A stretch of DNA of 64,000 nt from an uncultured Candidatus Saccharibacteria bacterium (lineage in GTDB: Bacteria > Patescibacteriota > Saccharimonadia > Saccharimonadales > 2-12-FULL-41-12): NCBI GenBank assembly GCA_964521095.1, contig CAZFPJ010000001.1, positions 38,974-102,973 on the forward strand, in the 5' to 3' direction. The notes under the pieces were generated by a model that was not told where the DNA came from, made no database searches, and was given only the letters and a program-made list of their open reading frames with translations. Below, in pieces: positions 137 to 62,851 of the stretch; within the stretch, counting starts at the first letter, position 1; every line of letters starts with the position of its first letter. Both the position numbers and the translations under genes were made by a program.

Positions 137-2707
137 TTAGTTCGGTTTGTAGCTTAACAGATACTTCTTTATCTTGGGTTCGTCTCGTTTGCGCCAGGCT
201 ACTCTGGCTTCTATCTCCGAAAAAGCTACGGTGATATTGCGGTGTAGTGCCACAACTTTGAGCTTTGGTGTAAAGAATGTAACAAACTTTTCTTGCCACT
301 CGGGCGTGTTAAGCGGGCCAGCCGAATATGTAACAAAATGGTCAAAAGATTTGCTGTCGCCATAGATGCCCTCTAGCCGAGTCCAGTTTGTTGTTAACCA
401 GTCCCAGGCAAGCTCTCTGGTGTGTTTGTTTTGCATCAGATACGCATACCAGCGAAAGATGTCTTGTGGGCGCACAAAACCATCCTCTCCCAGACTGGCA
501 GTTATGATATGCTTTGCATCTTCTGTATTCTTAACGCGACAAATTCCTGCTGTTATAGCGTGCTGCACATCTGGGTTGGTAGAAGTTTTGTATTGATTCA
601 TGAGATCATCTAGGTCGGCTTGGCCACCTCGCACAGCAACGCCGACAATTAGGGCGCGATAATCGGCGGGTAAGTCCGCAACAGTTTTGGCTTTTTTATA
701 ACGGTTGATTGCTTCGTCGATTGCTATTTTATCTTGCCCGGATGTCATCAGAGCCACCATGGTGTGGCGCAGGTGCTTAGTGTTCGGGTCGTCAGAAACT
801 TGGTCATCCCAGCCAAGACTTGCAAACTGGTCTTTTGCCAGAGAAACACGGAGTCTACGCAGGGCTACCGCAGAGGCTTTATCGCCCTCTATAAGCCCAC
901 TCGCAAGACTAATTGTTCGACATATTAATGCCCATACGGCATCTCGAGGTTCGTGCGCACAACCTTCAATAATAGCCATAGAGTCTGCGACACTGGCATC
1001 TCCGCGCCGAGCCAAGAGGAGTTGATCGTTCAAGATGTTGATCCGTGACTCTGCTTTTACGGTCTGGTTGGCTATTGCTGTTGCTAAGAAATTCTTGTGG
1101 TCTTTGGTCGTATAGTTTGTTACAAAATGTCCGCTAGCAGATGTATTCAAAATAATTTCATTGGGCTTGGATATTTCAAACTCCGTAGTTTTTTGGTCTA
1201 GCAGTTCGATATTGAGCTCGGATTCCGCCAATAGTGGTATGGGCCAAAGGTATTTTGAATCCTTTTGGTCCAACACAAAACGCTCTTGCGACAGCATTAT
1301 CTTGTTGCCTTTGGCTCCCACAGACACAACAGGCATGCCAGATTGCTCTAGCCAGGGGCTCATAAGAGCGTTTATGTCTTTGCCACTAGCCTTTGATAGC
1401 TCTGTCCACAAGTCGTCCTTGGTTGTGTTTTTGTAGGCATGTTTCGAAAAATATGTTCTTAGGCCTTCTCGGAAAGCTTTTTCGCCAATGTAATCGAGGA
1501 GCATCTTGAGCAATCGTCCTCCTTTGGCATAGACAATCGCTGGGTCGAACAGGCTGTGGATCTCGTCGGGGTGGTTTACGGCAACTCGTACTGGCTGTAC
1601 GGCCTTGTAGATATCTCGGTTAGAAGCCGACAAAACATCCATGGTGACATATTGCTCCCACTGGTGCCAGTCTGGGTGAAGTCTGTCCAGGGCTACATGC
1701 TCCATCATGCTGGCAAAACTCTCGTTAAGCCATAAGTCGTCCCACCACTTCATGGTTACGAGGTTGCCAAACCATTGGTGGCTTAGCTCGTGCGCTACCA
1801 CCATAGATATATATTGCTCACTAGACAGCGAGCGGTTTTTAGGGTCCGTTAGCAAGGCGATCTCTCGGTAGGTTATAAGGCCCCAGTTTTCCATGGCACC
1901 ACTTTCGAAGTCGGGCAGGGCTACCTGGTCGACTTTTGGTAAAGGGAAGGGTGTGTCAAAGTAATCTTCAAAAAATTCTAGTACTTTTACTGCCTCTTCG
2001 TTAGCATATTGCATAAAGCTAAGCGGTTGCGCTACCGTGCCCCAGGTTTGCACCAGCTGGCCTGCTTTGGTCTTGGCTTTTACGGCGTGCATCTCGCCGG
2101 TTACAAAAGCTAGCAGATAGGTGCTCATCATTGGTGTAGTATCGAAGGTAGTTACGAGCTTACCGTTCGCTTCTTTTTGAGATTTGGCAGGGGTATTTCC
2201 AAGCACCACTTCACCTTTTTTGGTGGTTAGGGTGAGGTCAAAGGTGGCTTTGGCTTCGGGCTCGTCAATACAAGGGAAGACCTCGCGCGCGTGATGCGAC
2301 TCAAATTGGGTAGCCAGGAGCTTTTTCTTTTGTCCTTCATGCTCAAAGTAGCATGGATAGAGCCCATGCATTTGGTCGGTAATGCGCCCAGAAAATTCCA
2401 AAGTTATTTGGTATTGGCCTGGATAGACCATGTTTTTGCTGTGCAAGCGAACTTCGTCAAATTTGTTATGAGTGTTTATACGATCAACCTCGATAGCTTT
2501 TTGGTCTTTGCCAAGTTTCTCGAGCTTTGCGCTTGTAACCTTTAAGTCCTTTTGGTGCAGAGTGATGCGTTGGCTTGGCCGACCAGTCTTTTTGCCAATG
2601 ATTACTACAGACCCCGTAAAGGTCATGTTATCTGTGTTCGGGTGCAGAGATAGTCCGTAATGCTCGGGCTGAAAGTCCCGAAAGAGTCTTTTTACTGTTT
2701 TAGTCAT
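137..2707 (-). CDS. pepN: M1-family aminopeptidase N
   Basis: 856-aa ORF with the GAMENWG exopeptidase motif and HELSHQWFGNLVTMKWWDDLWLNE (HExxH-x18-E zinc site). Confidence 0.9.
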   Translation of the reverse strand: MTKTVKRLFRDFQPEHYGLSLHPNTDNMTFTGSVVIIGKKTGRPSQRITLHQKDLKVTSAKLEKLGKDQKAIEVDRINTHNKFDEVRLHSKNMVYPGQYQITLEFSGRITDQMHGLYPCYFEHEGQKKKLLATQFESHHAREVFPCIDEPEAKATFDLTLTTKKGEVVLGNTPAKSQKEANGKLVTTFDTTPMMSTYLLAFVTGEMHAVKAKTKAGQLVQTWGTVAQPLSFMQYANEEAVKVLEFFEDYFDTPFPLPKVDQVALPDFESGAMENWGLITYREIALLTDPKNRSLSSEQYISMVVAHELSHQWFGNLVTMKWWDDLWLNESFASMMEHVALDRLHPDWHQWEQYVTMDVLSASNRDIYKAVQPVRVAVNHPDEIHSLFDPAIVYAKGGRLLKMLLDYIGEKAFREGLRTYFSKHAYKNTTKDDLWTELSKASGKDINALMSPWLEQSGMPVVSVGAKGNKIMLSQERFVLDQKDSKYLWPIPLLAESELNIELLDQKTTEFEISKPNEIILNTSASGHFVTNYTTKDHKNFLATAIANQTVKAESRINILNDQLLLARRGDASVADSMAIIEGCAHEPRDAVWALICRTISLASGLIEGDKASAVALRRLRVSLAKDQFASLGWDDQVSDDPNTKHLRHTMVALMTSGQDKIAIDEAINRYKKAKTVADLPADYRALIVGVAVRGGQADLDDLMNQYKTSTNPDVQHAITAGICRVKNTEDAKHIITASLGEDGFVRPQDIFRWYAYLMQNKHTRELAWDWLTTNWTRLEGIYGDSKSFDHFVTYSAGPLNTPEWQEKFVTFFTPKLKVVALHRNITVAFSEIEARVAWRKRDEPKIKKYLLSYKPN

Positions 2708-2738
2708 AGAGTATTAGTATACGGCAAACTCCAATATA

Positions 2739-2768
2739 TTGACAAATGATAAGAGAGTATGATATAAT
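2739..2768 (+). promoter_or_regulatory. sigma70-like promoter (TTGACA-18-TATAAT) with no downstream CDS
   Basis: TTGACA at 2739-2744 and TATAAT at 2763-2768. It points away from pepN into a region with no + strand ORF. Confidence 0.5.
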
Positions 2769-2774
2769 ATAAAG

Positions 2775-2952
2775 AGCACGAGCCTTGAGGTAGGTTATCT
2801 CGGTTAAAACTGTATGGTCATGACAGACTTTTCTTTCCCGCCCAAAGCGGTCCTCCCTTCGTCCTTTACCCTCAACTTTCATATCTAGCTTGTCATTTTT
2901 TCATTAATAGATTATTATAGATGTAGTAGTCGGCCAGCAGGTCGACTTTTTT
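2775..2952 (+). ncRNA. candidate ~180-nt small RNA of unknown class
   Basis: Bracketed by the consensus-like promoter at 2739-2768 and an intrinsic terminator at 2928-2952. Internal pairings include UUGAGG/CCUCAA and CCGC-CCAAA-GCGG. The only ORF is a 24-codon one with no RBS. Confidence 0.3.
2928..2952 (+). terminator. rho-independent terminator
   Basis: AGUCGGCC-AGCA-GGUCGACU stem-loop followed by a T6 run. There is no T-run on the opposite strand. Confidence 0.6.
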
Positions 2953-3099
2953 CATGTACATTTGTAATGAAATTTAATAATAAAAAACGGCTCGTTTTGT
3001 ACTTGAGATCAGTACAAGGAAACGGCGAGGAACGGAGTAAAACATACATTGAGTATGTTGCACGAGTACCGAAGCCTGTTGACGCAGTAATGAGCCAGG

Positions 3100-3145
3100 A
3101 GCTTTAGCGGTGCAGGCAGACTGTGTCTGGCTGGCAGGCTAAAGC
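3100..3145 (+). promoter_or_regulatory. long leader hairpin immediately upstream of the nusA RBS
   Basis: GCTTTAGC (3101-3108) pairs with GCTAAAGC (3138-3145). It encloses CAGAC-TGT-GTCTG and is followed by the AAGGAG RBS and the ATG at 3164. Confidence 0.35.
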
Positions 3146-3163
3146 GATACATAAGGAGACGAG

Positions 3164-4354
3164 ATGGATACACTAGATGTAAAACAACTAGGCTTAGTCA
3201 TAAAGACCATTGCCGAAGAAAAAAACTTGCCAGAAGAGTCTGTGCAAGAAGTAGTAGAGCAGGCCCTAGCTGCCGCCTACCGAAGAGACTTTGGTGACCG
3301 CGAGCAAGAAGTTCGAGTGAGCATAAACTTTAATACAGGCAATATCGATATATTTATTACCAAAGAAGTTGTCGAGCGAGTTGGCGACGAACGGTTTGAG
3401 TTAACCGTAGAGCAGGCCAAAAAGTTCAAAAAAGATGCCAAGATTGGTGATGAGATCGAGATAGCAGAAGTACCAGAAACTTTTGGTAGAGTTGCTGCCC
3501 AAACCGCCAAGCAGGTTATCTTGCAGAGGCTTCGTGAGGCAGAACGAGAGATAATCATGAACGAGTACCAAGACAAGATTGGTACGGTCTTAAACGGCAT
3601 AGTAGCTAGGGTAGAAGGCCGGATTGTCCGAGTAGACCTAGGTCGTGCCCAGGCAATCATGCCTAGTAGCGAGCAAATACAGGGTGAGCGATATCACCCC
3701 GGACAGCGCCTAAAAGTGTTCTTGAAAGATGTAGAACGAGGTATGCGGGGCCCTCAGCTTGTGGTTTCGCGGGCCAGTACAGACTTTATGGAATGGTTGT
3801 TCCGCGGAGAAGTGCCAGAGATGGAGAGTGGCGCAGTAGAGATCAAAGCAATAGCTAGGGAAGCTGGCGTGCGAAGCAAGATTGCCGTTGCAAGCACCGT
3901 ACCTGGAGTTGATCCAGTCGGTACATTTGTTGGTGGCCACGGAACCCGAGTCAACGCCGTTATGAGCGAGATTGGCGAGCAAGAAAAGATAGATATCATT
4001 GTCTGGGATGAAGACCCAATAAGTTTTCTAAAGAATGCCCTTAGCCCGACTCAGGTTAGCAGTGTCGAGCTAGATGATGCCGAAAAACGAGCCAAGGTAA
4101 TTGTGCCAGAGGACCAACAGAGTATCGCTATTGGTAAAGGTGGTCAAAATGTCCGTCTAGCCAGCAAGCTTACCGGTTACGAAATAGATATTACTGCAGA
4201 TGAAGCTACTGCACCTGAAGAAGCCAAAGCCGAAGTTACTACTAGCAAGCCCCTTGGCGGACAAAGACTAAAGAAAAAAGAGGCCCTTGAAAGTAGTTTG
4301 CTCGAAGCTATCGAAGAGCATGGCCAAGACGCCCCCGACTCGAACAAAGAATAA
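3164..4354 (+). CDS. nusA: transcription termination/antitermination factor NusA
   Basis: 396 aa with NusA N-terminal, S1 and KH regions (IAIGKGGQNVRLASKLTGYEIDI). No C-terminal acidic repeats. Confidence 0.93.
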   Translation: MDTLDVKQLGLVIKTIAEEKNLPEESVQEVVEQALAAAYRRDFGDREQEVRVSINFNTGNIDIFITKEVVERVGDERFELTVEQAKKFKKDAKIGDEIEIAEVPETFGRVAAQTAKQVILQRLREAEREIIMNEYQDKIGTVLNGIVARVEGRIVRVDLGRAQAIMPSSEQIQGERYHPGQRLKVFLKDVERGMRGPQLVVSRASTDFMEWLFRGEVPEMESGAVEIKAIAREAGVRSKIAVASTVPGVDPVGTFVGGHGTRVNAVMSEIGEQEKIDIIVWDEDPISFLKNALSPTQVSSVELDDAEKRAKVIVPEDQQSIAIGKGGQNVRLASKLTGYEIDITADEATAPEEAKAEVTTSKPLGGQRLKKKEALESSLLEAIEEHGQDAPDSNKE

Positions 4355-4396
4355 GCGTTTACATTTGCCCCCGACAAGAGTATCGTCAGAAGTACG

Positions 4397-4768
4397 ATGT
4401 TTTTTAGGAACCCTGAAAGAGGCGATAACTATCCAGAGAAGGCTACTGCCTACGAGGCACTCCAATGCAAGTCTTGCGGAGATGGTTTGTGTCACCCAGT
4501 CGGTAACGGTACTTTAATAGAAGAAAATCGGCGCAGGATGGCCGGCACCGTTAGCTGGGTGGTATCAGTAGAGTGTCCTAATTGTGATCTGGTTAGTGAT
4601 GTGTTTATGGATAGTCAGGGAGTCAGAGAGTTGTATGACGCTCAAGCTGAAGGGCTACAAGATCTAAAGCGAGATCTCGAAGATATTACTCGTTTGAATA
4701 TGATTCTAGAAGTAGAGGTGTTTGCAGGCGCTTTGCGCAATGGGTATATTTTGCCTGAGGATTTCTAA
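4397..4768 (+). CDS. hypothetical zinc-ribbon protein
   Basis: 123 aa with two CxxC pairs (CKSCGDGLC and CPNC) followed by a helical acidic tail. No family recognised. Confidence 0.6.
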   Translation: MFFRNPERGDNYPEKATAYEALQCKSCGDGLCHPVGNGTLIEENRRRMAGTVSWVVSVECPNCDLVSDVFMDSQGVRELYDAQAEGLQDLKRDLEDITRLNMILEVEVFAGALRNGYILPEDF

Positions 4769-4769
4769 G

Positions 4770-4796
4770 CTAGCACTCTTGTATGTCGAGTGCCAG
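4770..4796 (+). promoter_or_regulatory. CIRCE-like inverted repeat (putative HrcA operator) upstream of clpC
   Basis: CTAGCACTC-N9-GAGTGCCAG compared with the CIRCE consensus TTAGCACTC-N9-GAGTGCTAA. There is one mismatch between the arms. Confidence 0.55.
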
Positions 4797-4807
4797 GATG
4801 GTACTAT
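4779..4807 (+). promoter_or_regulatory. putative clpC promoter overlapping the CIRCE element
   Basis: TTGTAT (4779-4784, inside the CIRCE spacer), a 17-nt spacer, then TACTAT (4802-4807). Confidence 0.4.
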
Positions 4808-4857
4808 TTATGTAGTGGATTTACCACGAAGCATTGTATAAATGGAGAGCTGTAATT

Positions 4858-7320
4858 ATGATGCCATCGGCAGACTTTCAGGATTTTTTGAATCATTTGA
4901 CAGAAAATGCGCTAGCTAGTTTGCGCAATGCTGATGCTATTGCCCGTGGTCACGGTAGTTCATATGTTGGAACAGAACATCTGTTGTTAGGTGTTCTAGC
5001 ACAAGATTCTTCCATGGGCGCTAAGCTTTTAGACGGAGCAGGGGTAACTCTGCAAAAAGCTCGGTTGGCGCTCAACACTCCTCCCAGGGGATCTGGTGAG
5101 TTGGGGGCTAAAGGCCTCAGTGAGGTTGCAAAGCTTACGCTCAAGATGGCCTATGAGATTGCTAGAGATTTTGGCCAAGAATACTGTGGCACCGAACACA
5201 TACTGCACAGCATACTAGGTCAAAAAAATGCTAGAGCAACCGAAATGCTTCGATCTATGGGTGTCAATGTAGAACACCTAAATATAGAGCTAGAGCAATT
5301 TTTGAATAGGCAACAAACGCAGGGCCCGAGCGACATATCTACTGCGACCAAGAAGCGCAAAAAGAGTGCCCTCGATTTTTTTGGCACAGACTTAACGGAC
5401 AAAGCTGTCAAGGCAAAGCTTGACCCTGTGGTTGGGCGAGATGCTCAAATTGCTAGGATTATTACAATATTAAGTCGCAGAACCAAGAATAACCCAGTGC
5501 TCATTGGTGATCCGGGGGTTGGGAAAACGGCAATTGTCGAGGGGCTAGCCTCTAGAATTGTGGCCGAAGAAGTTCCAGACAATCTGCTTGGCAAACGAAT
5601 AGTAATGCTTGATCTTGCTGCCATGATTGCTGGCACAAAGTACCGTGGTGAGTTTGAGGAACGGCTTAAAAAAGTGATGGCAGAGCTAGAGAGCGACTCT
5701 AAGACAATAATTTTTGTTGACGAACTACACCTGATCGTTGGCGCAGGAGCCGCCGAGGGGGCTATGGACGCTGGTAATATGTTAAAGCCAGCGCTGGCGC
5801 GGGGCAAGATACAGCTTATTGGTGCTACTACCACCGATGAATATTCAAAATATGTTGAAAAAGACGCAGCACTAGAACGACGATTTCAGCCAGTTATAGT
5901 GCCAGAAGCTACCCCTAGCGAGACAGTCAACATATTAAAGGGTTTGCGCAAACACTACGAGAAGTTTCATAAAGTCAAAATTAGCGATGAAGTCATTGAC
6001 GACACGGTCCGGTTTGCTAGCCGGTATCTAAACGATCGTTTTATGCCAGACAAAGCCATCGACTTGCTCGATGAAGCATCGGCCCACCTGCGGGTGAATA
6101 AAGGCAAGACACCGTCAGAGCTCCGCAAGGCTCAGAAAGAACTCCGCTTGTTGCAGGTCCGCATAGAAGACGCGGCAACGGCCGAAAACTATGAATTGGC
6201 AGCAAAGTTTAAAACTAAAGCCAGTCAATTATCCAAAGATATTTTGAAGTTGCAAGCCAAACACAATGACGGCAGAGTTTTGAACTTATCTAGTGACGAT
6301 GTTGCTAATGTGGTGGCTAGGATTACCGGTGTGCCAGTGAACAAGGTCATTCGTAGCGAAGCCAAGTATCTCTTGAATCTAGAAAAAACTTTATCAAGCT
6401 ATATTATCGGCCAGGAGGAAGCGGTAGAGGCTGTCAGTAAGGCTGTTCGACGAAATCGTAGTGGCGTATCTGATGGCCGTCGCCCGATTGGTTCATTTGT
6501 TTTTCTTGGTCCAACCGGCGTTGGTAAAACAGAGCTTGCAAGGGTTTTGGCCCGAGAATTCTTTGGCTCCGAAGATAGTCTGATAAAGATAGACATGAGT
6601 GAATTTGGCGAACACCACAATGTGTCCAGACTCATGGGCGCGCCGGCTGGGTATGTTGGTTACGACGACGGAGGGCAGTTGACGGACAAAATTCGTAGAC
6701 AACCTTATAGTCTTGTCTTGTTTGACGAGATTGAAAAAGCCCACCCTGATGTGTTTAATATAATGTTACAGCTATTAGAGGATGGCCGGCTAACCGATGG
6801 TAAGGGTCGAGCGATAGACTTTAGTAACACCATTATAATCATGACTAGCAATATTGGCGCCGAGAAGTTACAGAAAGAGTCGGAGTTTGGCTTTTCCGCA
6901 GATACTAGCAAAGATCTTAATGACCTTGATCAACTGCACAAACGAAATCAAGAAAAGGTTTTCGCTGAGCTTAAGAAACTGATGCGCCCCGAGATGATTA
7001 ATCGAATCGACAAAGCTATAGTTTTCCGGTCGCTCACCAAGAGCGAGATCCAAAAGATTTTAGACATACAGATTGGTGAGTTGTCCGAGAGGCTATTGCG
7101 ACAAGGACTGGGGATTAAGCTAGATAAAAAAGCCAAGAAGCTTCTGATAGAAAAAGGGTATGATCCACAAAATGGGGTGCGCCCAATGCGCAGAGTTTTG
7201 CAGGACGAGATAGAAGACCCTATATCGGAGGCTCTGCTAGATGCGACCTACCAAAAAGGTACGGTTGTTTTGGTAAGCGCTCGCGCTAATAAACTAGTTT
7301 TCAGTTCGAACAAAGAATAA
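4858..7320 (+). CDS. clpC: ATP-dependent Clp protease ATP-binding subunit ClpC
   Basis: Clp_N repeats, two AAA+ modules (GDPGVGKT and GPTGVGKT) and a UVR-like linker. The ATG at 4858 follows GGAGAG; the TTG at 4834 in the ORF track is less likely. Confidence 0.92.
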
Positions 7321-18618: not shown

Positions 18619-19518
18619 ATGAAATTCTTTAAATCTTCATCAAAGAAAGAAAATCTAACCAGGACACAACGACTTAAGAGGATACTCAAAGTCGTTTTTT
18701 ATATTGTGTTTTGGTTGAGTGTATGGACTCCTATTGCCTGTATTATTGCACTGCCGATAGTGCTGACTCTACTGAATATATTCGAAAGAAATAATATGGC
18801 AACAGTAGCAACGCAGTCTAATATTTTGGTCGGAATTACATGTATGGCTGTGGCCTTGGTGTTTTTCGGCGCTATATGGCTTCTCCGCAATCGTAAGTCT
18901 TTGTTTATGAGAGTAGGTAGAAGTGTATTGCTTGTTTGTACATGGATTGGGCTAATTTTCGGAGTGGCTGTATTGGGCAGTACCGCTATGGATTCGCGTA
19001 AGCCCTCTACAGCGAACCAGACACAGCCATTGCCCTATCAGCTCCAGCAAAATCCAGAGCTCCTAGCGGTGACTAAAGAGGTCGGAGCTGTATATGTATC
19101 TGATTTAAATATGAGTTATGTTGACGGGTACGCCCAGGTAGACAGGAGAGGAGAATATAAGTATTTTAATGACGCGGCAGGCAAACCAATGCGTGGAGAT
19201 ATGACAATTAAAAAAGGTACCGTAGGTGATGAGCTGCGTCGATATGTTGCACATGAGTACTTGCATCATATTTGGTACACAAAACTGACTACTAGCGAAA
19301 AAGACTTGCTAACGAGCCATCTCATTGTAGCGTATGGCCAAGATTGGTATATGAAACAACGCACAAACAGTGGCTATGCTGACAGTGGAACGCTAGCGCC
19401 TACAGAATTGTTTTCTTTCTATTGCACGGAAGAGGCTGACAGATGGCTCCCCCAGCCAGTACTTGAACAGTGTAATAAGTATATTAATCGTAGTGTGCTT
19501 CAATTTAGTAGAACCTAG
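18619..19518 (+). CDS. polytopic membrane protein with an HExxH motif
   Basis: About four N-terminal TM segments followed by a soluble domain with VAHEYLHHIWYTKLTTSEK. The motif context resembles the ORF at 7352-8308. Confidence 0.7.
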   Translation: MKFFKSSSKKENLTRTQRLKRILKVVFYIVFWLSVWTPIACIIALPIVLTLLNIFERNNMATVATQSNILVGITCMAVALVFFGAIWLLRNRKSLFMRVGRSVLLVCTWIGLIFGVAVLGSTAMDSRKPSTANQTQPLPYQLQQNPELLAVTKEVGAVYVSDLNMSYVDGYAQVDRRGEYKYFNDAAGKPMRGDMTIKKGTVGDELRRYVAHEYLHHIWYTKLTTSEKDLLTSHLIVAYGQDWYMKQRTNSGYADSGTLAPTELFSFYCTEEADRWLPQPVLEQCNKYINRSVLQFSRT

Positions 19519-19538: not shown

Positions 19539-20780
19539 ATGAAACTTTCGATACAACCATACAAAGGCACCCGAGATTTTTACCCAGAAGACATGCGCTT
19601 GCGTAACTGGATGTTTGGCAAGTGGCGTACGACCTTGGAGAGTTTTGGTTACGAAGAATACGACGGTCCTATCCTCGAGGCTTTAGACTTATACACCGCT
19701 AAAACTAGCGAAGAAATAGTTAACGACCAATCATTTAACTTTGAAGACAGGGGCGGTAGGCGAGTGGTTATGCGTCCCGAAATGACACCAACGGTGAGCC
19801 GTATGGTGGCCAAAAAGCGCCAAGAATTGGGCTATCCACTTCGGCTTTATAGCATTCCGAATTGCTTTAGGTACGAGAGGCAACAGCGGGGGCGCTTGCG
19901 AGAATTTTGGCAACTCAATGCCGATTTGTTTGGGGTTGAGGGCGTAGAGGCAGAGCTCGAGATGATACTGCTGGTTAGTAGCCTAATGAAATCTTTTGGA
20001 GCCGCAGAAGATAGTTACGAGATTAGGGTTAATTCGCGCAAGCTACTTAACCAAAAAATTACCGAGGCTGGCGCTAAAACTTCTGCTAGCGAAGTGATTC
20101 GCTTGATAGATAATATCGACAAGCTAGAAAAAACAGAGTTTTTAGACAAGCTAAGCCAGCAAGTCGAACAACCAGACAGACTGTATAGTTTTTTGACCAA
20201 TGCAGATTCGGCCGAGGATAACCAGCTGGTAGAGAAAGCCAAAAACGCTGGCGTCTCAAACATCCGCTTTGTGCCAACTATTGCTCGAGGGTTTGAATAC
20301 TATACAGACATAGTGTTTGAAGTGTTCGACACCGATGCAGACAATAATCGGGCGATGTTTGGTGGCGGTCGTTACGACGGGCTGGTGGGCGAATTTGGCG
20401 TAGAGCCGGTGCCGACTGTTGGTTTTGGCATGGGCGATGTGACTTTCCAGAACTTTCTAGAATCAAACGGACTTGTTCCCGAACTAAATACAACAACAGA
20501 CCTATACATTGCGCCAGTTGGCGATACAGTTGATGAGTGCCAGTCATTGGCTCAAAAACTTCGAACAAAGGGGCTTAGTGTTGCTGTAGATATTTCTGGG
20601 AAAAAGCTAGACAAGCAGATAAAAAACGCCGACAAAAAAGGCATAAGATTTGTTTTGTTTGTGGGCCAGCAAGAGATCGACGCCGACAGCTATAAGCTCA
20701 AAAACCTTGCGACAGGTGAAGAAACCCAGCAAGACACCGAGCAAGTAGTGTCTACCATAAAAAATTACCGTAAGCAGTAG
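19539..20780 (+). CDS. hisS: histidyl-tRNA synthetase
   Basis: Class II motifs (MRPEMTP, FRYERQQRGRLREFWQ, GGGRYD) and a C-terminal anticodon-binding domain. Confidence 0.93.
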   Translation: MKLSIQPYKGTRDFYPEDMRLRNWMFGKWRTTLESFGYEEYDGPILEALDLYTAKTSEEIVNDQSFNFEDRGGRRVVMRPEMTPTVSRMVAKKRQELGYPLRLYSIPNCFRYERQQRGRLREFWQLNADLFGVEGVEAELEMILLVSSLMKSFGAAEDSYEIRVNSRKLLNQKITEAGAKTSASEVIRLIDNIDKLEKTEFLDKLSQQVEQPDRLYSFLTNADSAEDNQLVEKAKNAGVSNIRFVPTIARGFEYYTDIVFEVFDTDADNNRAMFGGGRYDGLVGEFGVEPVPTVGFGMGDVTFQNFLESNGLVPELNTTTDLYIAPVGDTVDECQSLAQKLRTKGLSVAVDISGKKLDKQIKNADKKGIRFVLFVGQQEIDADSYKLKNLATGEETQQDTEQVVSTIKNYRKQ

Positions 20781-20814: not shown

Positions 20815-22089
20815 ATGAATGTAAAACGAACCAACAAATCCAAGACCGAAGTAACACTAACAATTTCTGCTACGCAGGCAGACCTGGATAAGCTTAAAAC
20901 GCATGTGCTAAAAAAGCTCGCCAAAGATGTTAAGATGCCTGGTTTTCGAACCGGTACGGCACCAATTGCTCTTGTCGAGAAAAACATTGACCAAACGCGA
21001 CTGCAAACCGAGTTTTTAGACGAGGCGCTGACTCACTTGTACGCAGATGCTACTGCCTCCGAAAGCATTCGCCCAGTTACCAAGCCAGATGTTCAAATCA
21101 AGAAGTTTGTACCTTTTACGGAGCTAGAATTTGATGTCACCACAGGGGTTATTGGTGACTTTAAGCTACCAAACTACAAGACAATTAAAGTCGAAAAGCC
21201 AAAGATTACAATTTCTGCCAAAGATGTCAAAGAAGTACTGGACTCGTTGCAGACTCGTATGGCAACGCACAAAGATGTACAGCGACCAGCCAAAAAAGAC
21301 GACCAAGTAGTCATAGATTTTGCTGGCAAAGACGACAAAGGTCAGCCAGTTTCTGGTGCAGATGGCAAAGACTACCCATTAGTTTTGGGCAGTAACTCGT
21401 TTATCCCTGGATTCGAAGACAATCTACTCGGTCTAAAAGCTGGCGAGCAAAAGATCTTTACACTTAAGTTTCCTAAAGATTACGGCGTATCGGCCCTTGC
21501 CAGCAAAGATGTAACTTTTGCAGTGACTGTAAATAAGGTGCAGGAAGCTACAAAACCCGAGTTAGATGACGCGTTTGCTAGTAGTGTCGGGCCGTTCAAA
21601 ACAGTCGCCGAGCTCAAAGACGATATTGAAAAACAGTTAACTGCCGAGCGACAGGCCGAGGTTACTCGCAATCACCAAAACGAGGTTGTAGCTAGTCTTG
21701 TAGAAAAACTAGACATGGCACTGCCAAAAGAGCTAATTAACCAGCAAGCCACCTACAACATCGACGAAGTTCGGCGCAACTTGATGTACAAAGGCCAGAC
21801 TTATGAAGAATACTTAAAAGTCGAAGGGCACACCGAAGAGGCATATAGAGAAAAAGTAGTTATCCCTCAGGCCGAAAAACAGCTAAAAACCAGCATTATG
21901 CTAAGCGAAATAGCCCAAAAAGAAGGGTTGGCTGTGACTCCAGAAGAGTTAGAAATTCGCCTACAACTGCTAAAGGGCCAATACGCCCAAGACAAGCTAA
22001 TGCAGGCCGAGCTAGACAAACCAGAAAACCAACAAGACATCGCTCAGCGCATGCTAACCGAAAAAGTCCTCGAACTTTTGACCAGCTAG
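20815..22089 (+). CDS. tig: trigger factor
   Basis: 424 aa with an N-terminal ribosome-binding region (GFRTGTAP), an FKBP-like middle (IPGFEDNLLGLKAGE) and a C-terminal helical arm. Confidence 0.93.
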   Translation: MNVKRTNKSKTEVTLTISATQADLDKLKTHVLKKLAKDVKMPGFRTGTAPIALVEKNIDQTRLQTEFLDEALTHLYADATASESIRPVTKPDVQIKKFVPFTELEFDVTTGVIGDFKLPNYKTIKVEKPKITISAKDVKEVLDSLQTRMATHKDVQRPAKKDDQVVIDFAGKDDKGQPVSGADGKDYPLVLGSNSFIPGFEDNLLGLKAGEQKIFTLKFPKDYGVSALASKDVTFAVTVNKVQEATKPELDDAFASSVGPFKTVAELKDDIEKQLTAERQAEVTRNHQNEVVASLVEKLDMALPKELINQQATYNIDEVRRNLMYKGQTYEEYLKVEGHTEEAYREKVVIPQAEKQLKTSIMLSEIAQKEGLAVTPEELEIRLQLLKGQYAQDKLMQAELDKPENQQDIAQRMLTEKVLELLTS

Positions 22090-22145
22090 AATAATACAAA
22101 ATTACCCTCTTGTGGATAAACCCTTGACACTACTGTCTAGGGGGA

Positions 22146-22185
22146 GGTAATATTGCAACATATATCAAAGCGTTAGCAATAACAC
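22146..22185 (+). repeat. 40-bp direct repeat, copy 1 (promoter -10 plus leader)
   Basis: GGTAATATTGCAACATATATCAAAGCGTTAGCAATAACAC, preceded by TTGACA at 22124-22129. Matches 23595-23634 at 39 of 40 positions. Confidence 0.85.
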
Positions 22186-22207
22186 AAAAACTAAAACAAG
22201 GAAACAG

Positions 22208-22507
22208 ATGAAACAAAAGAATAACCTCATCAGATCCCAAGAAGGTATTGCCCACCTAGGACTAATAGTCTTGGCACTAGTAGTCATCGGAGCCGTAGGC
22301 TTTGGCGCCTGGCGGGTAGCTAGTAATAACAAAAGCAATGATAGTGTCCAGGTTACAGAAATCAGCGAAGAAGAGGCAGACGCCGCTCTTGACCAGATAG
22401 AAGACGACTCAAGCACAGTTAGCGACAATACCGAAACAACTACTAACTTTACTGATCAGTCAGCCACTAGCGAAGTAGACGGAGGATCCAACAATGCAAG
22501 TTTCTAA
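22208..22507 (+). CDS. hypothetical membrane-anchored acidic protein
   Basis: 99 aa with one TM segment (GLIVLALVVIGAVGFGAW) and an acidic Ser/Thr-rich tail. Overlaps the next ORF by 14 nt. Confidence 0.6.
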   Translation: MKQKNNLIRSQEGIAHLGLIVLALVVIGAVGFGAWRVASNNKSNDSVQVTEISEEEADAALDQIEDDSSTVSDNTETTTNFTDQSATSEVDGGSNNASF

Positions 22508-23540
22508 AACCAACTCACTCATAACTCGTGGCATTGCTTTTGTAGCCGCGTTTGCTTTTGCAGTAACTGTCTTTACTCCGGCAATAGTTAGTGCCCAAGA
22601 CGCCTCGGCTACTACTCCAGCCCCAGCAACCGGATTCAAGGCTAACCTTACAAACAAAGATACTTGCATAGCATCTTTTACGGCCAACCCTAATGTTGCA
22701 GAAGTCAAAAAGTACGGCCAAGAACGCATCGACAAACGCCTGGCAACTGTAGAAAAACTAGATAAAGCAGTCGACAAATTTTACAAAGAGCGTAAAAGCA
22801 CCTACGACGACAAAGCAGACAGTATAGATGTAACACTAGGTAGATATGCTGACAAAGACCTAAAAAGGAAGCTTCCTGACGCCGATGCCCACAAAAAAGC
22901 ATTAAACAAGAATATTGCAGACCGCAAAAAACTTCTCAAGAAGTTTAACGGTCAACTAAAAGAAGCAGGCGACCAACCAGCAGCAATTGGTGCCGCAACT
23001 TGTTCAGCTATCATAGATGGACGCATATATAACGGTTTAGTAGCAAAATACAAACAACAGACAAAACTAGACCGCATCTCTATGCGTAACGCTATTAACC
23101 AGGCTCGCTACGACGCCGCCCACGGCATAAAGTCTGGCGTAAAAGGTATGCCAAATCCAGAAAAGAATAACGATGAGATTAAGTCTGCCCAAAAACTGCT
23201 AAACAGCGATAAGTCTGCTCAAAAAGAGATTGACGCACTAGAAGCTAAAGTCATCAAAAAAGAAGCCCCAGACATAGCCAAAGACTATAAAAAAGTAGCT
23301 GCTGATGCCAGGGCTGCTAAAAAAGCCGAACAAGCTAAAGCACAGCCACAGCCAGGTGGTGGCAAGGGTGGGGGCTGTAAAACTGGGCAGAAGAAAGCAT
23401 CAAATGGTGTATGTTGGTCTCCCCCTTCTTCCGCACAAGAGAAGAAGACCGCGTATTTAAAGTGCTACAAAGGCAAACCACCAAAGTATACTGCGGGCCA
23501 GTGGGCTAAAATCTGTACAAAAGCAGCCTATGGAGGATAA
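22494..23540 (+). CDS. hypothetical secreted Lys-rich protein with a Cys-containing C-terminus
   Basis: Signal peptide ending in TPAIVSAQDA, a Lys/Ala-rich helical body, a GGGKGGG linker and a four-Cys C-terminal module. Confidence 0.7.
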   Translation: MQVSKTNSLITRGIAFVAAFAFAVTVFTPAIVSAQDASATTPAPATGFKANLTNKDTCIASFTANPNVAEVKKYGQERIDKRLATVEKLDKAVDKFYKERKSTYDDKADSIDVTLGRYADKDLKRKLPDADAHKKALNKNIADRKKLLKKFNGQLKEAGDQPAAIGAATCSAIIDGRIYNGLVAKYKQQTKLDRISMRNAINQARYDAAHGIKSGVKGMPNPEKNNDEIKSAQKLLNSDKSAQKEIDALEAKVIKKEAPDIAKDYKKVAADARAAKKAEQAKAQPQPGGGKGGGCKTGQKKASNGVCWSPPSSAQEKKTAYLKCYKGKPPKYTAGQWAKICTKAAYGG

Positions 23541-23594
23541 GAGGGTTCAGTTTAGTTACAAAAACATAGCCCTCTTGACCAAACCCTCCGGGGG

Positions 23595-23634
23595 GGGTAA
23601 TATTGCAACATATATCAAAGCGTTAGCAGTAACA
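23595..23634 (+). repeat. 40-bp direct repeat, copy 2
   Basis: GGTAATATTGCAACATATATCAAAGCGTTAGCAGTAACAC, preceded by TTGACC at 23575-23580. Confidence 0.85.
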
Positions 23635-23711
23635 CGGAGCTAAAGGCTTTGCAGGCTACATTTGATTCAGGCAAAAGTGTACTGAAGTAGCAATGAGCGT
23701 AGAGGCACAAA

Positions 23712-23738
23712 CTAGCACTCGGGATTGACGAGTGCTAG
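23712..23738 (+). promoter_or_regulatory. CIRCE-like inverted repeat (putative HrcA operator) upstream of clpP
   Basis: CTAGCACTC-GGGATTGAC-GAGTGCTAG with perfect arms. The stem is extendable to 12 bp (23709-23741). Confidence 0.7.
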
Positions 23739-23753
23739 TTTGCTTATTATAAT
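23725..23753 (+). promoter_or_regulatory. clpP promoter overlapping CIRCE
   Basis: TTGACG (23725-23730, in the CIRCE spacer), 17-nt spacer, TATAAT (23748-23753), ATG at 23763. Confidence 0.6.
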
Positions 23754-23762
23754 AGATATATT

Positions 23763-24356
23763 ATGAGTGTGTTGATTCCAACGGTCATAGAGCAAGAAGG
23801 TCGCGTAGAGCGAGCCTATGATATTTATAGTCGATTGCTAAAAGATCGGATCATCTTTTTGGGGACAGATGTAAACGAGCACACTGCAAATTTGGTAGTA
23901 GCGCAGTTACTCTTTTTGGCAAACGAAGACCCAAAGAAAGACATTAGCCTATACATTAACAGCCCCGGTGGTAGTGTGTATGATGCGCTAGCCATTTATG
24001 ACACTATGCAGTTTGTTGGCCCCGACATCCAAACAGTCGGTATTGGCGTACAGGCCAGTGCGGCAGCTTTTTTACTTAGCAGTGGCGCAAGAGGTAAACG
24101 ATCTTTGCTAGAGCACGCAACCGTGATGATACACCAGCCATCTAGTGGTACGCGTGGTAAGGTGACCGACCAAGAAATAGACCTACGGGAATCGCTTCGG
24201 GTGAAGAAGTTGCTCGAGGAAATTATGGCCAAGAACACTGGCCAGAAGGTCGGCAAAATTCACGCCGACATGGAGCGCGACAAATGGCTAACCGCCGAAG
24301 AAGCCAAAAAATACGGTCTGGTCGACAAAATCATCACCACAACCCCTCAGAAATAA
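23763..24356 (+). CDS. clpP: ATP-dependent Clp protease proteolytic subunit
   Basis: 197 aa. [16 protein letters not shown], catalytic Ser context [15 protein letters not shown] His and ERD Asp. Confidence 0.95.
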
Positions 24357-24368
24357 TATTTTAAATTC

Positions 24369-24397
24369 TTGACGAGCACCCAAAAAACCAATATACT
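24369..24397 (+). promoter_or_regulatory. putative rpoB-rpoC promoter
   Basis: TTGACG-17-TATACT, about 240 nt upstream of the rpoB ATG. Confidence 0.45.
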
Positions 24398-24635
24398 GAG
24401 GTCATAAGAAGTAGTGGCCGTAGATTTTGTATTGTCAAAAAAATGGGGTTTGACACCAGCAAAATCATACGCAGTAATCTTCGGTTATACGCTGTTAGAA
24501 GCACTCTGATCAGGTTTCTAACAAGTACAACAGATAAAACAAACCAAACCATTGCTCCATGCAAATGCAATCTTGGAGTTTACCCCGTTATTATTTGACC
24601 ACAATAATACAACAAAGAAGGAGTACTAAAAGTAC

Positions 24636-27600
24636 ATGGCCAAGACTCAAGCCCCGATAAGCGGTACAATCGCTCGCACATATTTTACTACTAACAACCC
24701 AGTTATAGATCTACCCAACCTGGTGGACCACCAGAACAAGTCTTTTCAATGGTTTGTCGAGGAAGGACTGGGCGAACTGCTAGCCGAGATTAGTCCAATA
24801 GACGACTATACTGGAACAAAATTATCATTAAGTTTCAAAGATTATCACTTTGAAGACCCCAAAACTACCGAAGCCGAAGCTCGCGAAAACAACATTAGCT
24901 ACGAAGCGCCCCTAAAAGCCAAGGTAGAACTAACCAACAAAGTAACCGGCGAAGTCAAAGAGCAAGAGATATATCTGGGTGATTTCCCATGCATGACAAG
25001 TCGCGGAACTTTTGTCATTAACGGTGCAGAACGAGTTGTGGTGAGTCAGCTAATTCGTTCGGCCGGTGTGTTCTTTACTGCCGATCAGTCGGGTGGCCGA
25101 AATGTTTATGGGGCCAAGGTTATTCCTGGCCGTGGCGCATGGCTGGAGTTTGAGACCGCTGCCAACGGGGCTTTGTTTGTCAAGATTGACCGCAAGCGAA
25201 AGATTGCCGTTACAACCCTACTTCGAGCATTAGGTATGAGCGAAGCTCAGATGAAAGATGCCTTTAAACATGTCGATCAAGGTAAGAGTAGTTACCTAGA
25301 CGCAACCCTAGACAAAGACCCTTCTAAAACTGCTAGCGAAGCTTTGATTGAAGTGTATCGACGACTTCGTCCGGGCGACCTAGCAACTGTAGACAACGCT
25401 CGAAGCTTGCTAGAAAACATGTTCTATAACTACAAGCGATTCGATTTTTCTAGGGTTGGTCGCTACAAAATCAACAAACGACTTGACCTAAAGGTTCCAA
25501 ATACAGCCGAAAACCGCGTGATGCGACTCGAGGACTTGACCGCAATTATTAGCGAGCTTATCCGCCTAAACAACACACAAGAGCCAGCCGACGACATTGA
25601 CAGTCTAGCTAACAGGCGAGTAAAGCTGGTTGGCGAGCTAGTGCAACGACAGTTTAGGATTGGTTTGCTTCGTATGGAGCGAAACACCAAAGACCGCATG
25701 AGCATGAGCGAGATCGAAACCGTAACTCCTGGGCAACTCATTAACGCTCGGCCAATTGTGGCAGCTGTTCGTGAGTTTTTTGCCAGTTCACAGTTATCTC
25801 AGTTTATGGACCAGATTAACCCAGTTAGTGAGCTTGCGCACAAGCGACGATTTAGCTCTATGGGGCCAGGTGGTTTGAGTCGAGAACGAGCAGGATTTGA
25901 GGTGCGAGATGCCCACGAAACTCACTATGGACGAATTTGTGCTGTAGAAACTCCCGAGGGTGCAAACATTGGGCTTGTGCTAAACCTTGCTAACTATGCT
26001 CGGATAAACGACTATGGCTTTATAGAGACTCCTTACCGCAAGGTTATCAATGCAGTGACTGCCAAAGATGCGGTTGGTCATATCGCTTCTGTCAACCTAG
26101 AAGACGCAGGTGGTAAGACTATTGTCAAAACAGGATCTAAAATTACTGATGCCGACGCTAAAAAGCTAGCTAGTGTAAAAGATCGTGCCACCTGGCCCGT
26201 TAAAGCCCGGGTTACGAGCGAGATTGTTTATCTTGATGCCGACGGCGAGTCGCAGGCTATCATTGCTGGCGCAGGAAATGCCGTAGACAAAGACGGATAC
26301 TTTAAGGAAGCCCGAATTGGTGCCCGCGAATATATGCAGGTCGCCGAGGTAGATGCCAACGATGTCAACTACATGGACGCCAGCAATAACCAAATCATTG
26401 GTTCTATTGCCGGGCTTGTGCCATTTGTAGAGCGAGACCGTGTAGACCGTGCTCTTGTAGGTTCTAACCAGCAAAAACAGGCTGTACCACTAATTCAGCC
26501 AAGATCACCAATTGTTGGTACCGGCCTAGAAGCAACAGTCGCTGCAAACAGTGGCCAGGTTGTCTATGCCGAAGGCAAAGGCACGGTTGTTAGCGCTTCT
26601 GCCGACGAAGTTGTTGTGGCTTACGAAAAGCGAAAAGCTACTTATAAACCAATGCACTATGTTAGGAGTAACGAAGGTACTAGCATTAACCAAAGAGTCG
26701 TTGTAAACAGTGGCGACAAAGTGAAGCCAGGCGATGTACTAATAGAGGGTATGTCTATAGAAAACGGCGAGCTAGCGCTTGGTCGTGACCTAGTCGTGGC
26801 CTTTATGCCATGGAACGGCTACAACTTTGAGGACGCTATGGTGCTTTCCCGCAAAATCGTAGAAGACGACACTCTAACCAGCATACATATTGTTGATTAC
26901 ATGACAGAAGTCCGCGAGACCAAACTAGGCCCAGAGATCATAACTGGCGACATTCCAAATGTTAGCGAAGATGCTCTAAGACACCTAGACGAAGAAGGTA
27001 TCGTACGCATTGGTGCCGAAGTGCATCCTGGCGATATCTTGGTAGGTAAAATTACTCCAAAGGGCGAACAAGAACTTTCTAGCGAAGAGCGGTTGCTCCG
27101 AGCAATCTTTGGCGAAAAGGCCAAAGAAGTCCGAGATACTTCTCAGCGGATGAGTAATGGTAAGCACGGTAAAGTTGTTGGTGTTAAGGTGTTTAGTCGT
27201 GCCAACGGACATGAGCTAAAAGCTGGCGTCATCATGCAGATTCAGGTATTTGTAGCTCAGATGCGTAAGGTTCAGGTTGGCGACAAGCTAGCTGGACGAC
27301 ACGGTAACAAGGGCGTTATTGCCAAGATTTTGCCACAAGAAGACATGCCATTTACAGAAGACGGCACCCCAGTAGACATAGTTCTTAACCCGATGGGTGT
27401 TCCGAGTCGTATGAACCTTGGTCAGTTATTCGAGACTCACCTTGGTATGGCGGCTAGGGCGCTTGGCATCAAAGTCGCTACTCCATCATTCAATGGTGTG
27501 CCTGTTAGTAAAATTAAAGAGCTCCTCAAAGAAGCTGGTTACCCAGAAGATGGCAAGCAACAGCTGTATGACGGCCGTACCGGAGAAGCCTTTAAAGAGC

Positions 27601-28172
27601 GAACAGTGGTTGGCAACATGTACATGCTAAAACTAACTCACATGGTAACCGACAAGATCCACGCCCGTTCAACTGGCCCATACACTATGGTGACTCAACA
27701 GCCACTAGGTGGTAAGGCACAAAATGGTGGACAAAGGTTCGGAGAGATGGAGGTCTGGGCTCTAGAAGCTTATGGCGCATCTAACACTTTGCAGGAAATG
27801 CTTACTATCAAGTCCGACGATGTTTATGGACGAAGCAAAGCTTACGAATCTATTGTTAAGCAGACAGAAATTGTTGGACCAAAAGTTCCAGAAAGCTTTA
27901 ATGTATTGGTAAAAGAGTTGCAGGGTCTTGGCCTAAAAGTCGACCTAATCGCCAAAGCAGAGGCTATTGACGCCGAAGAAGTCTTGGCCGAGAGCATCAA
28001 AGGAGAGGCAGAAGCACCGTCAGAAGTTGAGGTCCCAGACGCAGAGATTAGTAATGTAGATGTGTCGGAAGATGCAAAAATAGACGAATTTATGGTAATG
28101 GAGCTCCAGGATGATGTCCCGGCGACCGTTGCCCAAATATCAGATGATGTAAACGAAGAGGAGAGCAAATAA
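24636..28172 (+). CDS. rpoB: DNA-directed RNA polymerase subunit beta
   Basis: 1178 aa with conserved beta-subunit blocks (SQLSQFMDQINP, GRHGNKGV, NPMGVPSRMN, GEMEVWALEAYGA). Confidence 0.97.
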   Translation: MAKTQAPISGTIARTYFTTNNPVIDLPNLVDHQNKSFQWFVEEGLGELLAEISPIDDYTGTKLSLSFKDYHFEDPKTTEAEARENNISYEAPLKAKVELTNKVTGEVKEQEIYLGDFPCMTSRGTFVINGAERVVVSQLIRSAGVFFTADQSGGRNVYGAKVIPGRGAWLEFETAANGALFVKIDRKRKIAVTTLLRALGMSEAQMKDAFKHVDQGKSSYLDATLDKDPSKTASEALIEVYRRLRPGDLATVDNARSLLENMFYNYKRFDFSRVGRYKINKRLDLKVPNTAENRVMRLEDLTAIISELIRLNNTQEPADDIDSLANRRVKLVGELVQRQFRIGLLRMERNTKDRMSMSEIETVTPGQLINARPIVAAVREFFASSQLSQFMDQINPVSELAHKRRFSSMGPGGLSRERAGFEVRDAHETHYGRICAVETPEGANIGLVLNLANYARINDYGFIETPYRKVINAVTAKDAVGHIASVNLEDAGGKTIVKTGSKITDADAKKLASVKDRATWPVKARVTSEIVYLDADGESQAIIAGAGNAVDKDGYFKEARIGAREYMQVAEVDANDVNYMDASNNQIIGSIAGLVPFVERDRVDRALVGSNQQKQAVPLIQPRSPIVGTGLEATVAANSGQVVYAEGKGTVVSASADEVVVAYEKRKATYKPMHYVRSNEGTSINQRVVVNSGDKVKPGDVLIEGMSIENGELALGRDLVVAFMPWNGYNFEDAMVLSRKIVEDDTLTSIHIVDYMTEVRETKLGPEIITGDIPNVSEDALRHLDEEGIVRIGAEVHPGDILVGKITPKGEQELSSEERLLRAIFGEKAKEVRDTSQRMSNGKHGKVVGVKVFSRANGHELKAGVIMQIQVFVAQMRKVQVGDKLAGRHGNKGVIAKILPQEDMPFTEDGTPVDIVLNPMGVPSRMNLGQLFETHLGMAARALGIKVATPSFNGVPVSKIKELLKEAGYPEDGKQQLYDGRTGEAFKERTVVGNMYMLKLTHMVTDKIHARSTGPYTMVTQQPLGGKAQNGGQRFGEMEVWALEAYGASNTLQEMLTIKSDDVYGRSKAYESIVKQTEIVGPKVPESFNVLVKELQGLGLKVDLIAKAEAIDAEEVLAESIKGEAEAPSEVEVPDAEISNVDVSEDAKIDEFMVMELQDDVPATVAQISDDVNEEESK

Positions 28173-60770: not shown

Positions 60771-61145
60771 TCATTTAGTATATTTTTTAATTCGCGAGCT
60801 GTCTTCACGGCTTTTGTTGTTTTTTGAATACAGCTCAACAAGTAGGATCTTATCGTTTTGGCGAATTGCGACAAACACGATGCGTAGTTTTTGGCGGTAT
60901 TGTGGCGAGTCGGTATCAAGACGCATTTTGATTATCTCGATCTCATCGGTCGACCCAGGCAATATGGCAGCTTTTTTGCTAGCAAAAAACTGTTTGCGGT
61001 ATTCCGCCAGATTATACTCTGGCGATTTTATGTATAGCGCCTCTACCTTCGAACGCACACGCTTAACATCTGACTGTATAGTCGGTACGCGCTTGGCTAG
61101 TGCTTTGATATCTTTTTTGAATTCTGGTGTCTGCTCAAAGTTCAT
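60771..61145 (-). CDS. putative toxin, RelE/ParE-superfamily-like
   Basis: 124 aa. Overlaps the upstream antitoxin-like gene by 11 nt. C-terminal LRIVFVAIRQNDKILLVELYSKNNKSRED resembles RelE/HigB-type toxins. Confidence 0.6.
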   Translation of the reverse strand: MNFEQTPEFKKDIKALAKRVPTIQSDVKRVRSKVEALYIKSPEYNLAEYRKQFFASKKAAILPGSTDEIEIIKMRLDTDSPQYRQKLRIVFVAIRQNDKILLVELYSKNNKSREDSSRIKKYTK

Positions 61146-61923: not shown

Positions 61924-61957
61924 AATGCTTGCCCACTGATTATGCTTTAATGACTTC

Positions 61958-62849: not shown

Positions 62850-62851
62850 GA

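Follow-up and report, generated by a model that had tools for sequence, protein, structure and literature searches.

A duplicated promoter region beside a two-gene module in a replaceable slot between tig and clpP of a Saccharimonadales genome

Flexible genomic islets hold variable surface-protein genes between conserved core genes, and their contents are exchanged by recombination in the flanks. Operators of the CIRCE/HrcA type (CIRCE, controlling inverted repeat of chaperone expression) are found at heat-shock genes, including the dually regulated clpP of some streptococci. Saccharibacteria live attached to host bacteria and, to our knowledge, their surface proteins are almost entirely uncharacterized. 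In this study, we analyzed 64,000 nucleotides (nt) of an uncultured Candidatus Saccharibacteria bacterium of the order Saccharimonadales (contig CAZFPJ010000001.1), hereafter called the window, in which a module of two genes, p99 and p348, stands between tig and clpP and is bracketed by a 46-nt direct repeat. This repeat duplicates the promoter region of the module itself and is specific to the species. The reading that we prefer, with a probability of roughly 55%, is that the module occupies a slot and that the 46-nt repeat is the core of a duplication of the module promoter, i.e., a scar of turnover rather than an attachment site or a target-site duplication. The locus is made up of the following elements (positions are those of the window):

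20815 to 22089, plus strand: tig (trigger factor), left border of the slot, with the Pfam domains Trigger_N, FKBP_C and Trigger_C
22095 to 22185, plus strand: promoter-region repeat, copy 1, consisting of a diverged part (22095-22124) and a near-identical core (22140-22185)
22208 to 22507, plus strand: p99 gene, from the list of open reading frames
22494 to 23540, plus strand: p348 gene, from the list of open reading frames
23557 to 23635, plus strand: promoter-region repeat, copy 2 (orphan), with a diverged part (23557-23587) and the core (23590-23635)
23636 to 23707, plus strand: 72-nt non-coding segment from copy 2 to the clpP operator
23712 to 23738: predicted CIRCE operator, right border of the slot, with a stem that extends over 23708-23742
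23725 to 23753, plus strand: predicted proximal clpP promoter, TTGACG, 17 nt, TATAAT (11/12 consensus positions)
23763 to 24356, plus strand: clpP, matching Pfam CLP_protease with an E value of 1.8e-74

A preliminary description of this DNA, made from its letters, had presented tig-clpP as a conserved neighborhood that carries an insert here, and a comparison with twelve related genomes agrees with it, as the contents between the two genes vary among relatives. The public tig genes nearest to that of the window come from metagenome-assembled genomes of Saccharibacteria (Saccharimonadales). In the closest locus, L023 (tig identity 76%), a two-gene cassette like that of the window is present. 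Five loci with tig identities of 67-75% (L024, L025, L026, L029 and L030) have NUDIX-containing sets of two or three genes, and four at 52-56% (L001, L002, L003 and L009) have unrelated small open reading frames (ORFs). An empty site, which the preliminary description had suggested looking for in relatives, is represented by L004 (49%) with its gap of only 93 bp; with other occupants in nine loci, the cassette is not universal. In L005 (48%), no clpP was found within ~6 kb after tig. The borders are sharp: in a three-way blastn comparison, similarity is lost past the tig stop codon and is regained with CIRCE, at 23710-23712 in the window, 4091-4094 in L023 and 8208-8213 in L024. Between the tig stop codon and CIRCE, this lineage of Saccharimonadales has a slot whose contents can be replaced.

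Inside the slot, the ORFs of 99 and 348 amino acids (aa) described earlier were confirmed, and they share 14 nt (ATGCAAGTTTCTAA); the GGAGGA ribosome-binding site and the start codon of p348 sit within the 3' end of p99. The distance between tig and clpP is 1673 nt and not the 1.45 kb first given, 1450 being the period of the repeat. A foreign base composition of the cassette was considered and ruled out, its guanine-plus-cytosine content being the same as that of the neighboring DNA.

The repeat itself has a near-identical core and a diverged upstream part. The 40-mer at 22146-22185 recurs with one mismatch, so the near-perfect direct repeat reported at 39 of 40 positions stands, with its second coordinates shifted by one (23596-23635, not 23595-23634). 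Ungapped extension yields 46 nt, 22140-22185 versus 23590-23635, of which 44/46 are identical at a spacing of 1450, the two differences being at 22145/23595 and 22179/23629; the longest perfect identity is 33 nt (22146-22178), in direct orientation. Farther upstream, similarity with indels continues over ~45 nt (22095-22124 versus 23557-23587; score 26.5, compared with 13.5 +/- 2.9 for shuffles, 4/2000 of which reach it). The whole duplicated promoter region thus comprises 80-90 nt with indels, within which the 46-nt core is best preserved. The upstream part has diverged more than the core (Fisher p = 0.007 counted by columns, 0.03 by events), and the DNA 3' of the two cores is unrelated.

Both copies contain the boxes that had been noticed before, namely a TAATAT -10 box with ~30 nt of leader, preceded by TTGAC(A/C) as the -35 box. 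In copy 1, TTGACA (22124-22129) is followed by an 18-nt spacer, TAATAT (22148-22153) and ~30 nt of leader, and a G-run is present; in copy 2, which begins ~16 nt past the p348 stop codon in direct orientation, TTGACC (23575-23580) and TAATAT (23598-23603) are separated by 17 nt. Relative to copy 1, copy 2 lacks 13 nt beside the G-run, and its -35 box is a different upstream hexamer. The possibility that the repeat is a generic, dispersed promoter motif was checked in the window. No further copy of the 40-mer occurs in the 64 kb at up to 3 mismatches (0 expected by chance), and each half of the repeat, used as a separate query, finds the same two sites only. JGI metagenomes and IMG/VR were also scanned with a 28-mer of the repeat, and neither collection gave a match.

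Logan contigs of five sequencing runs (SRR14271331, 332, 335, 336 and 338) break inside the repeat, and all four junctions were recovered. Because the independent assemblies of five runs supply all four junctions, the repeat is not an artifact of the metagenome-assembled genome. With k=31, these contigs are uninformative as to whether every cell has the cassette between the repeat copies, and no single-copy allele was found within the same species, an allele that k=31 contigs are unable to resolve. A mixed population could be envisaged, in which homologous recombination between the copies excises a 1450-bp circle and the cassette is reversibly lost. The 33 nt of perfect identity in direct orientation (22146-22178) would be a possible substrate, and the k=31 contigs fit both a chromosomal and a circular arrangement. 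However, there is no sign of an empty allele, a 313-kb NCBI contig carries the cassette, and 33-46 nt is short for efficient RecA recombination. We consider such reversible loss very improbable; it would in any case be a consequence of the repeat and not its origin, and is as such compatible with the preferred explanation.

The module is present in other genomes, which allows its promoter to be compared. In L023, the p99 ortholog has 85 aa (52% identity) and the p348 ortholog 374 aa (46% identity over residues 16-269, E 1e-67); the cassette occupies the same slot, its stop/start overlap is likewise 14 nt, and its single promoter has a similar layout. An exhaustive HMMER scan of 1.84 billion representatives gave 17 members of the p348 family at E <= 1e-3. 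A word-indexed protein search returned self-matches only, and the ORFan status that this suggested for p99 and p348 was overturned by HMMER and synteny. The family-wide search for loci was made with a 6-sequence alignment, which yielded 3 loci, a 12-sequence alignment being too divergent. Each family member with a readable context (L031, L033, L038 and, twice, L039) is preceded on its 5' side by a small gene with the same hallmarks: a basic N-terminus, (D/N)GIAHLGLI, one hydrophobic helix and G-x-(W/Y)-R-V. An acidic tail is found in the small proteins of L023, L031, L033, L038 and the second L039 pair, but not in the first L039 pair. Outside the slot, modules lie beside ABC transporters where the neighborhood is readable (L031, L033 and L039). 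The two modules of L039 (81+308 aa and 82+356 aa) have diverged and follow each other in tandem at 2527-3688 and 3772-5071, next to an ABC transporter gene; their large proteins are barely alignable with each other. By homology and gene order, p99 and p348 are a rare, uncharacterized, conserved two-gene module and not an ORFan pair.

The layout of copy 1, in which TTGACA is followed by 10 nt, the G-run and the -10 box, also occurs in the L023 cassette promoter. As this architecture of G-run and -10 box is common to both, the repeat is the cassette's own promoter and not a target site. A downstream second copy of the promoter is absent in L023, and no flanking direct repeats surround the module in L023, L031 or L033, the window alone having them. 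Since L023 lacks a second copy and no other module has flanking repeats, the repeat is a species-specific duplicate and not an insertion scar.

The preliminary description had interpreted the repeat as a promoter/leader duplication produced when the cassette was inserted. The duplication of promoter and leader holds, whereas insertion as its cause is contradicted by the single promoter of L023 and by the lack of any other flanked module. In its full form, this explanation says that the cassette entered the leader of a pre-existing promoter and that the event duplicated promoter and leader, either as a long target-site duplication or as an attL/attR pair. It has some appeal, as the cassette lies exactly between the direct repeats, whose period is 1450 bp, the slot is exchangeable with an empty allele in L004, and the patchy spread on the tig tree is more parsimonious with two separate acquisitions. 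However, no recombinase or transposase was found in or beside the cassette with Pfam, NCBIfam, PHROGs and PADLOC, its only ORFs being p99 and p348, and its ends have no terminal inverted repeats. L023 has the cassette in the same slot and no second copy, other modules are without flanking repeats, and the promoter layout shared with L023 implies that the promoter travels with the cassette. A duplicated region of 80-90 nt with indels is also unlike a target-site duplication. We therefore regard an insertion scar as unlikely.

The duplication is much younger than the cassette, because its copies are 96% identical whereas the proteins of the window and L023 share 46-52% identity. Under the reading of a duplicated module promoter, the starting point would be recombination between two copies or two alleles of the module, with the coding part of one subsequently lost. 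Two routes can be proposed. In the first, a tandem array like that of L039 would lose the coding part of its second unit; in the second, another allele would enter by a single crossover in the promoter core. A crossover in the core would leave the order that is seen, from diverged upstream DNA through an identical core to unrelated downstream DNA. Copy 1 would then drive p99-p348, and copy 2 would be an orphan promoter facing 72 nt of non-coding DNA and, beyond them, CIRCE and the clpP promoter. At present, transcripts from copy 2 might enter the CIRCE hairpin and clpP, where they could be stopped or read through. A tandem remnant should start with the 5' region of the unit, in direct orientation and immediately after the unit, and copy 2 does exactly that.

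Several points weigh against this reading. A relic of a second coding sequence, also expected of a tandem remnant, was not found in the 72 nt. Compared with the window and L023 cassettes, this segment gave scores of 19 and 22, with shuffle means of ~18, and these scores were reached by 347/1000 and 93/1000 shuffles, respectively; nor does it have similarity to any related locus. Selection or gene conversion could instead have left a near-identical core beside upstream DNA that has diverged, and the promoter activity of both copies is predicted from sequence. In the neighbor-joining tree of tig, L023 pairs with L024 (85% identity), which has a NUDIX-containing set, and the window falls outside this pair, a placement compatible both with inheritance of the cassette and with its separate acquisition. 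Two replacements would be more parsimonious than one gain and two losses, although a single-gene tree cannot settle this. Finally, the interaction of p99 with p348 and their surface location are predicted from sequence features.

Two short resemblances in the 72 nt were also considered, one to the 3' end of a p348-like gene (QKCTEVA.. compared with ..RICTTVANGA-stop in L023) and one to a mature N-terminus (GF.A.L); judged against shuffles, neither is significant.

Selection could also account for the likeness of the two copies, if they are kept alike as a shared promoter/operator that co-regulates the module and a distal clpP transcript, e.g., through a regulator binding at -10 to +30. This would fit the 96% identity of the core next to diverged upstream DNA, and copy 2 has retained 5/6 of a -35 box at the correct spacing despite its 13-nt deletion. 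However, the sequence is conserved in no relative, the L023 leader differs, and the core contains neither a known operator nor a convincing palindrome; a recent neutral duplicate would be just as likely to show two differences in 46 nt. Such selection is, in our view, doubtful.

The right border of the slot is formed by the hairpin at 23708-23742 (14 bp), which a terminator scan had flagged. It contains CTAGCACTC-N9-GAGTGCTAG at 23712-23738, with two symmetric mismatches to the CIRCE consensus TTAGCACTC-N9-GAGTGCTAA. Two CIRCE-type sites were observed in the window, compared with 0.05 expected. The spacer and right arm of CIRCE contain the clpP -35 box (TTGACG), and TATAAT follows after 17 nt. 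CIRCE was found 5' of clpP in every related locus examined that has clpP (12 loci), ten times by pattern search; the L023 site is a 4-mismatch variant that was spotted by eye. Sites with the clpP -35 box built in occur in L001-L004, L009, L023-L026, L029 and L030, together with that at 23708-23742 of the window. The hairpin before clpP is a conserved putative CIRCE (HrcA) operator, at which binding of HrcA is predicted.

The second site in the window, at 4770-4796 (3 mismatches), stands directly 5' of a clpC-like gene (4834-7320). As clpP and clpC both have CIRCE-type sites, control of the ClpCP protease by HrcA is suggested for this lineage. An hrcA gene was not found among the ORFs scanned in the 64-kb window, and a literature search for HrcA/CIRCE in Saccharibacteria gave nothing relevant. 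The absence of clpX after clpP, which had been remarked upon together with the rpoB gene that follows, was confirmed, but it is not special to this genome. No Clp ATPase gene follows clpP in the Saccharimonadales loci where this region was examined, so the trait is lineage-wide, the clpC-like gene lying elsewhere; rpoB comes after clpP directly or past one small ORF (L001, L002, L003, L009, L023 and L026). In L026 (6264-6290 and 6450-6476), the complete element is preceded at a distance of ~190 nt by part of a CIRCE left half (GAATTAGCACTCTGGGT), which is another short-duplication rearrangement right at the slot border.

The hairpin also bears on whether copy 2 might give rise to a small RNA of ~100-135 nt ending at 23708-23742. 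A promoter-like site followed by a 14-bp hairpin with a T-rich tail is what such a gene would look like, and the segment as a whole is more stably folded than its shuffles (z -4.1). However, the hairpin is the CIRCE DNA operator kept before clpP in relatives, and this explains the folding signal; once it is left out, the remaining 100 nt do not differ from shuffles in folding (z -0.9). Rfam gave no match, and the 72 nt are conserved in no related locus. A small RNA is thus very unlikely.

The larger protein of the module had been described as Lys-rich, with a GGGKGGG linker and a four-Cys C-terminal module. All of these were seen, but p348 has six Cys overall (residues 58, 170, 295, 307, 324 and 341), four of them in the tail. 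It contains 54 Lys (15.5%), with a net charge of +30 and an isoelectric point (pI) of 9.75, and it is built of a signal peptide, a helical domain of ~235 aa, a Gly-rich linker (GGGKGGG at residue 288) and a basic four-Cys tail. As read directly from the sequence, residues 1-34 comprise a basic N-region and a hydrophobic core and end in ..KTNSLITRGIAFVAAFAFAVTVFTPAIVSA/QD (..AIVSA/QD; the stroke marks the cleavage point), a site of the A-x-A type; this S-A-Q cleavage site is conserved in the alignment of the p348 family. p348 is a predicted Sec-dependent secreted protein. Cys58 and Cys170 are conserved across the family, consistent with a putative disulfide between them, and the tail is the family's variable part.

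Structure prediction, which had been proposed for p348, was carried out with AlphaFold2 and gave a confident all-helical model without a fold match. The N-terminus appears as a lone helix at residues 12-27 with a low predicted local distance difference test score (pLDDT), and residues 50-285 form long helices with pLDDT above 90. Foldseek returned no significant match for the model, the best hits (E 0.4 in PDB, 0.1 in BFVD; template modeling scores below 0.25) being generic helical bundles. Neither p99 nor p348 has a real match in Pfam, NCBIfam, PHROGs, PADLOC or PDB sequences; candidate matches to known families were rejected as transmembrane-segment or low-complexity noise, those in PDB being artificial Gly/Ser linkers.

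In the small protein p99, a basic N-terminus is followed by the motif EGIAHLGLI, a transmembrane helix and an acidic tail with a net charge of -15. The positive-inside rule would place the N-terminus in the cytoplasm and the acidic tail on the extracellular side. A type IV pilin-like nature of p99 was considered and rejected, since EG/IAHLG lacks the Glu at +5 (compare motifs of the G/FTLIE type) and no N-methyl domain was found in NCBIfam or Pfam. Opposite charges recur in the four modules measured, with -13 to -15 for the tail of the small protein and +26 to +42 for the large one (pI 9.8-10.1). From this charge complementarity and the translational coupling of the genes, we infer that p99 and p348 may form a cell-surface pair, in which an acidic tether and a basic secreted rod are held together by opposite charge. 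A bolder idea, which we regard as quite improbable, is that p99/p348 are the founding example of a two-component surface structure restricted to Saccharibacteria, spread from genome to genome and into the slot by promoter-seeded recombination and subject to repeat-mediated on/off loss within a population. If this were true, an acidic membrane tether would hold a basic, disulfide-stabilized helical rod with a variable Cys-rich tip for contact with the host bacterium.

Other parts of the window were seen to vary as well. Upstream of the slot, hisS (19539-20780; ORF and Pfam scan) is preceded by a 299-aa ORF with several predicted membrane helices (18619-19518), which lies between tRNA-Leu and hisS and has no Pfam match. 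It has no positional counterpart in L023-L026, where other genes are found, and looks like a further variable position. Downstream, rpoB (24636-28172) is the next annotated gene after clpP, and the gap between these two genes is a second variable slot (24357-24635 in the window), in which several relatives have an ORF of 181-260 aa (L001 8661-9410, L002 8543-9256, L003 2993-3775, L009 8540-9250, L023 4729-5274 and L026 7110-7655). That of L023 has a faint FR47 acetyltransferase-like match; the window, L004, L024, L025 and L029 are without the ORF.

A stretch of ~85 nt in the 5' leader of rpoB, just past a TTGACG/17/TATACT promoter, hardly varies among seven genomes with tig proteins only 67-76% identical to that of the window. 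It was located at 24400-24484 in the window, 5311-5391 in L023, 8905-8983 in L024, 9495-9593 in L025, 7676-7776 in L026, 4320-4411 in L029 and 8289-8370 in L030, and the window alone has a 40-nt insertion (24485-24524) after ..AATCTTCGG. The small ORF that overlies it does not keep its frame between genomes, and Rfam gave no match; the stretch is possibly an unrecognized leader RNA element. At the far end of the window, on the minus strand, the cluster at 61135-63997 encodes helix-turn-helix plus SocA/Panacea antitoxin-like, RadC-like JAB and Schlafen-group-3 helicase-like proteins; it resembles a defense or toxin-antitoxin islet and adjoins tRNA genes at 58.2-58.8 kb.

Its rarity, its fast evolution, the predicted export of its products and its movement between genomic sites make the gene pair a reasonable candidate for a part in host interaction, and one with a defined family. 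The locus also illustrates how small accessory modules may be swapped in reduced genomes that have no obvious mobile elements, here between a core gene and a fixed operator. Current views are not overturned by these results, the repeat being an ordinary kind of rearrangement scar.

Comparison with known systems places the different parts of the locus as follows. The predicted long antiparallel helical bundle of p348 recalls elongated helical-bundle proteins of the BAR-like, ClyA-like and apolipophorin-like kinds; with Foldseek E values of 0.4 and 0.1, the likeness is one of fold class only, and p348 is not assigned to any of these groups. As in CIRCE/HrcA systems, the inverted repeat overlaps a sigma-70-type promoter and is kept before clpP, and a CIRCE-like site precedes clpC. 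Here, however, the -35 box is in the CIRCE spacer and right arm, and the operator is the fixed border of a variable slot.

The repeat resembles the products of tandem duplication with partial deletion, or of Campbell-type insertion-duplication, in that one complete unit stands between direct repeats derived from its own 5' region. L039 does have a tandem array, and the sequence of diverged, identical and unrelated parts fits a crossover in the core. It differs from such products in having no recognizable coding remnant, and the event cannot be reconstructed from one genome. The slot as a whole is comparable to replacement-type flexible genomic islets, with which it shares sharp borders (at the tig stop codon and CIRCE), variable contents with one empty allele, the lack of a mobility gene, a native base composition and contents predicted to encode exported proteins. 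In contrast to those islets, the slot spans only 0.1-1.7 kb, one of its borders is a regulatory operator, and an orphan duplicate of the promoter remains within it.

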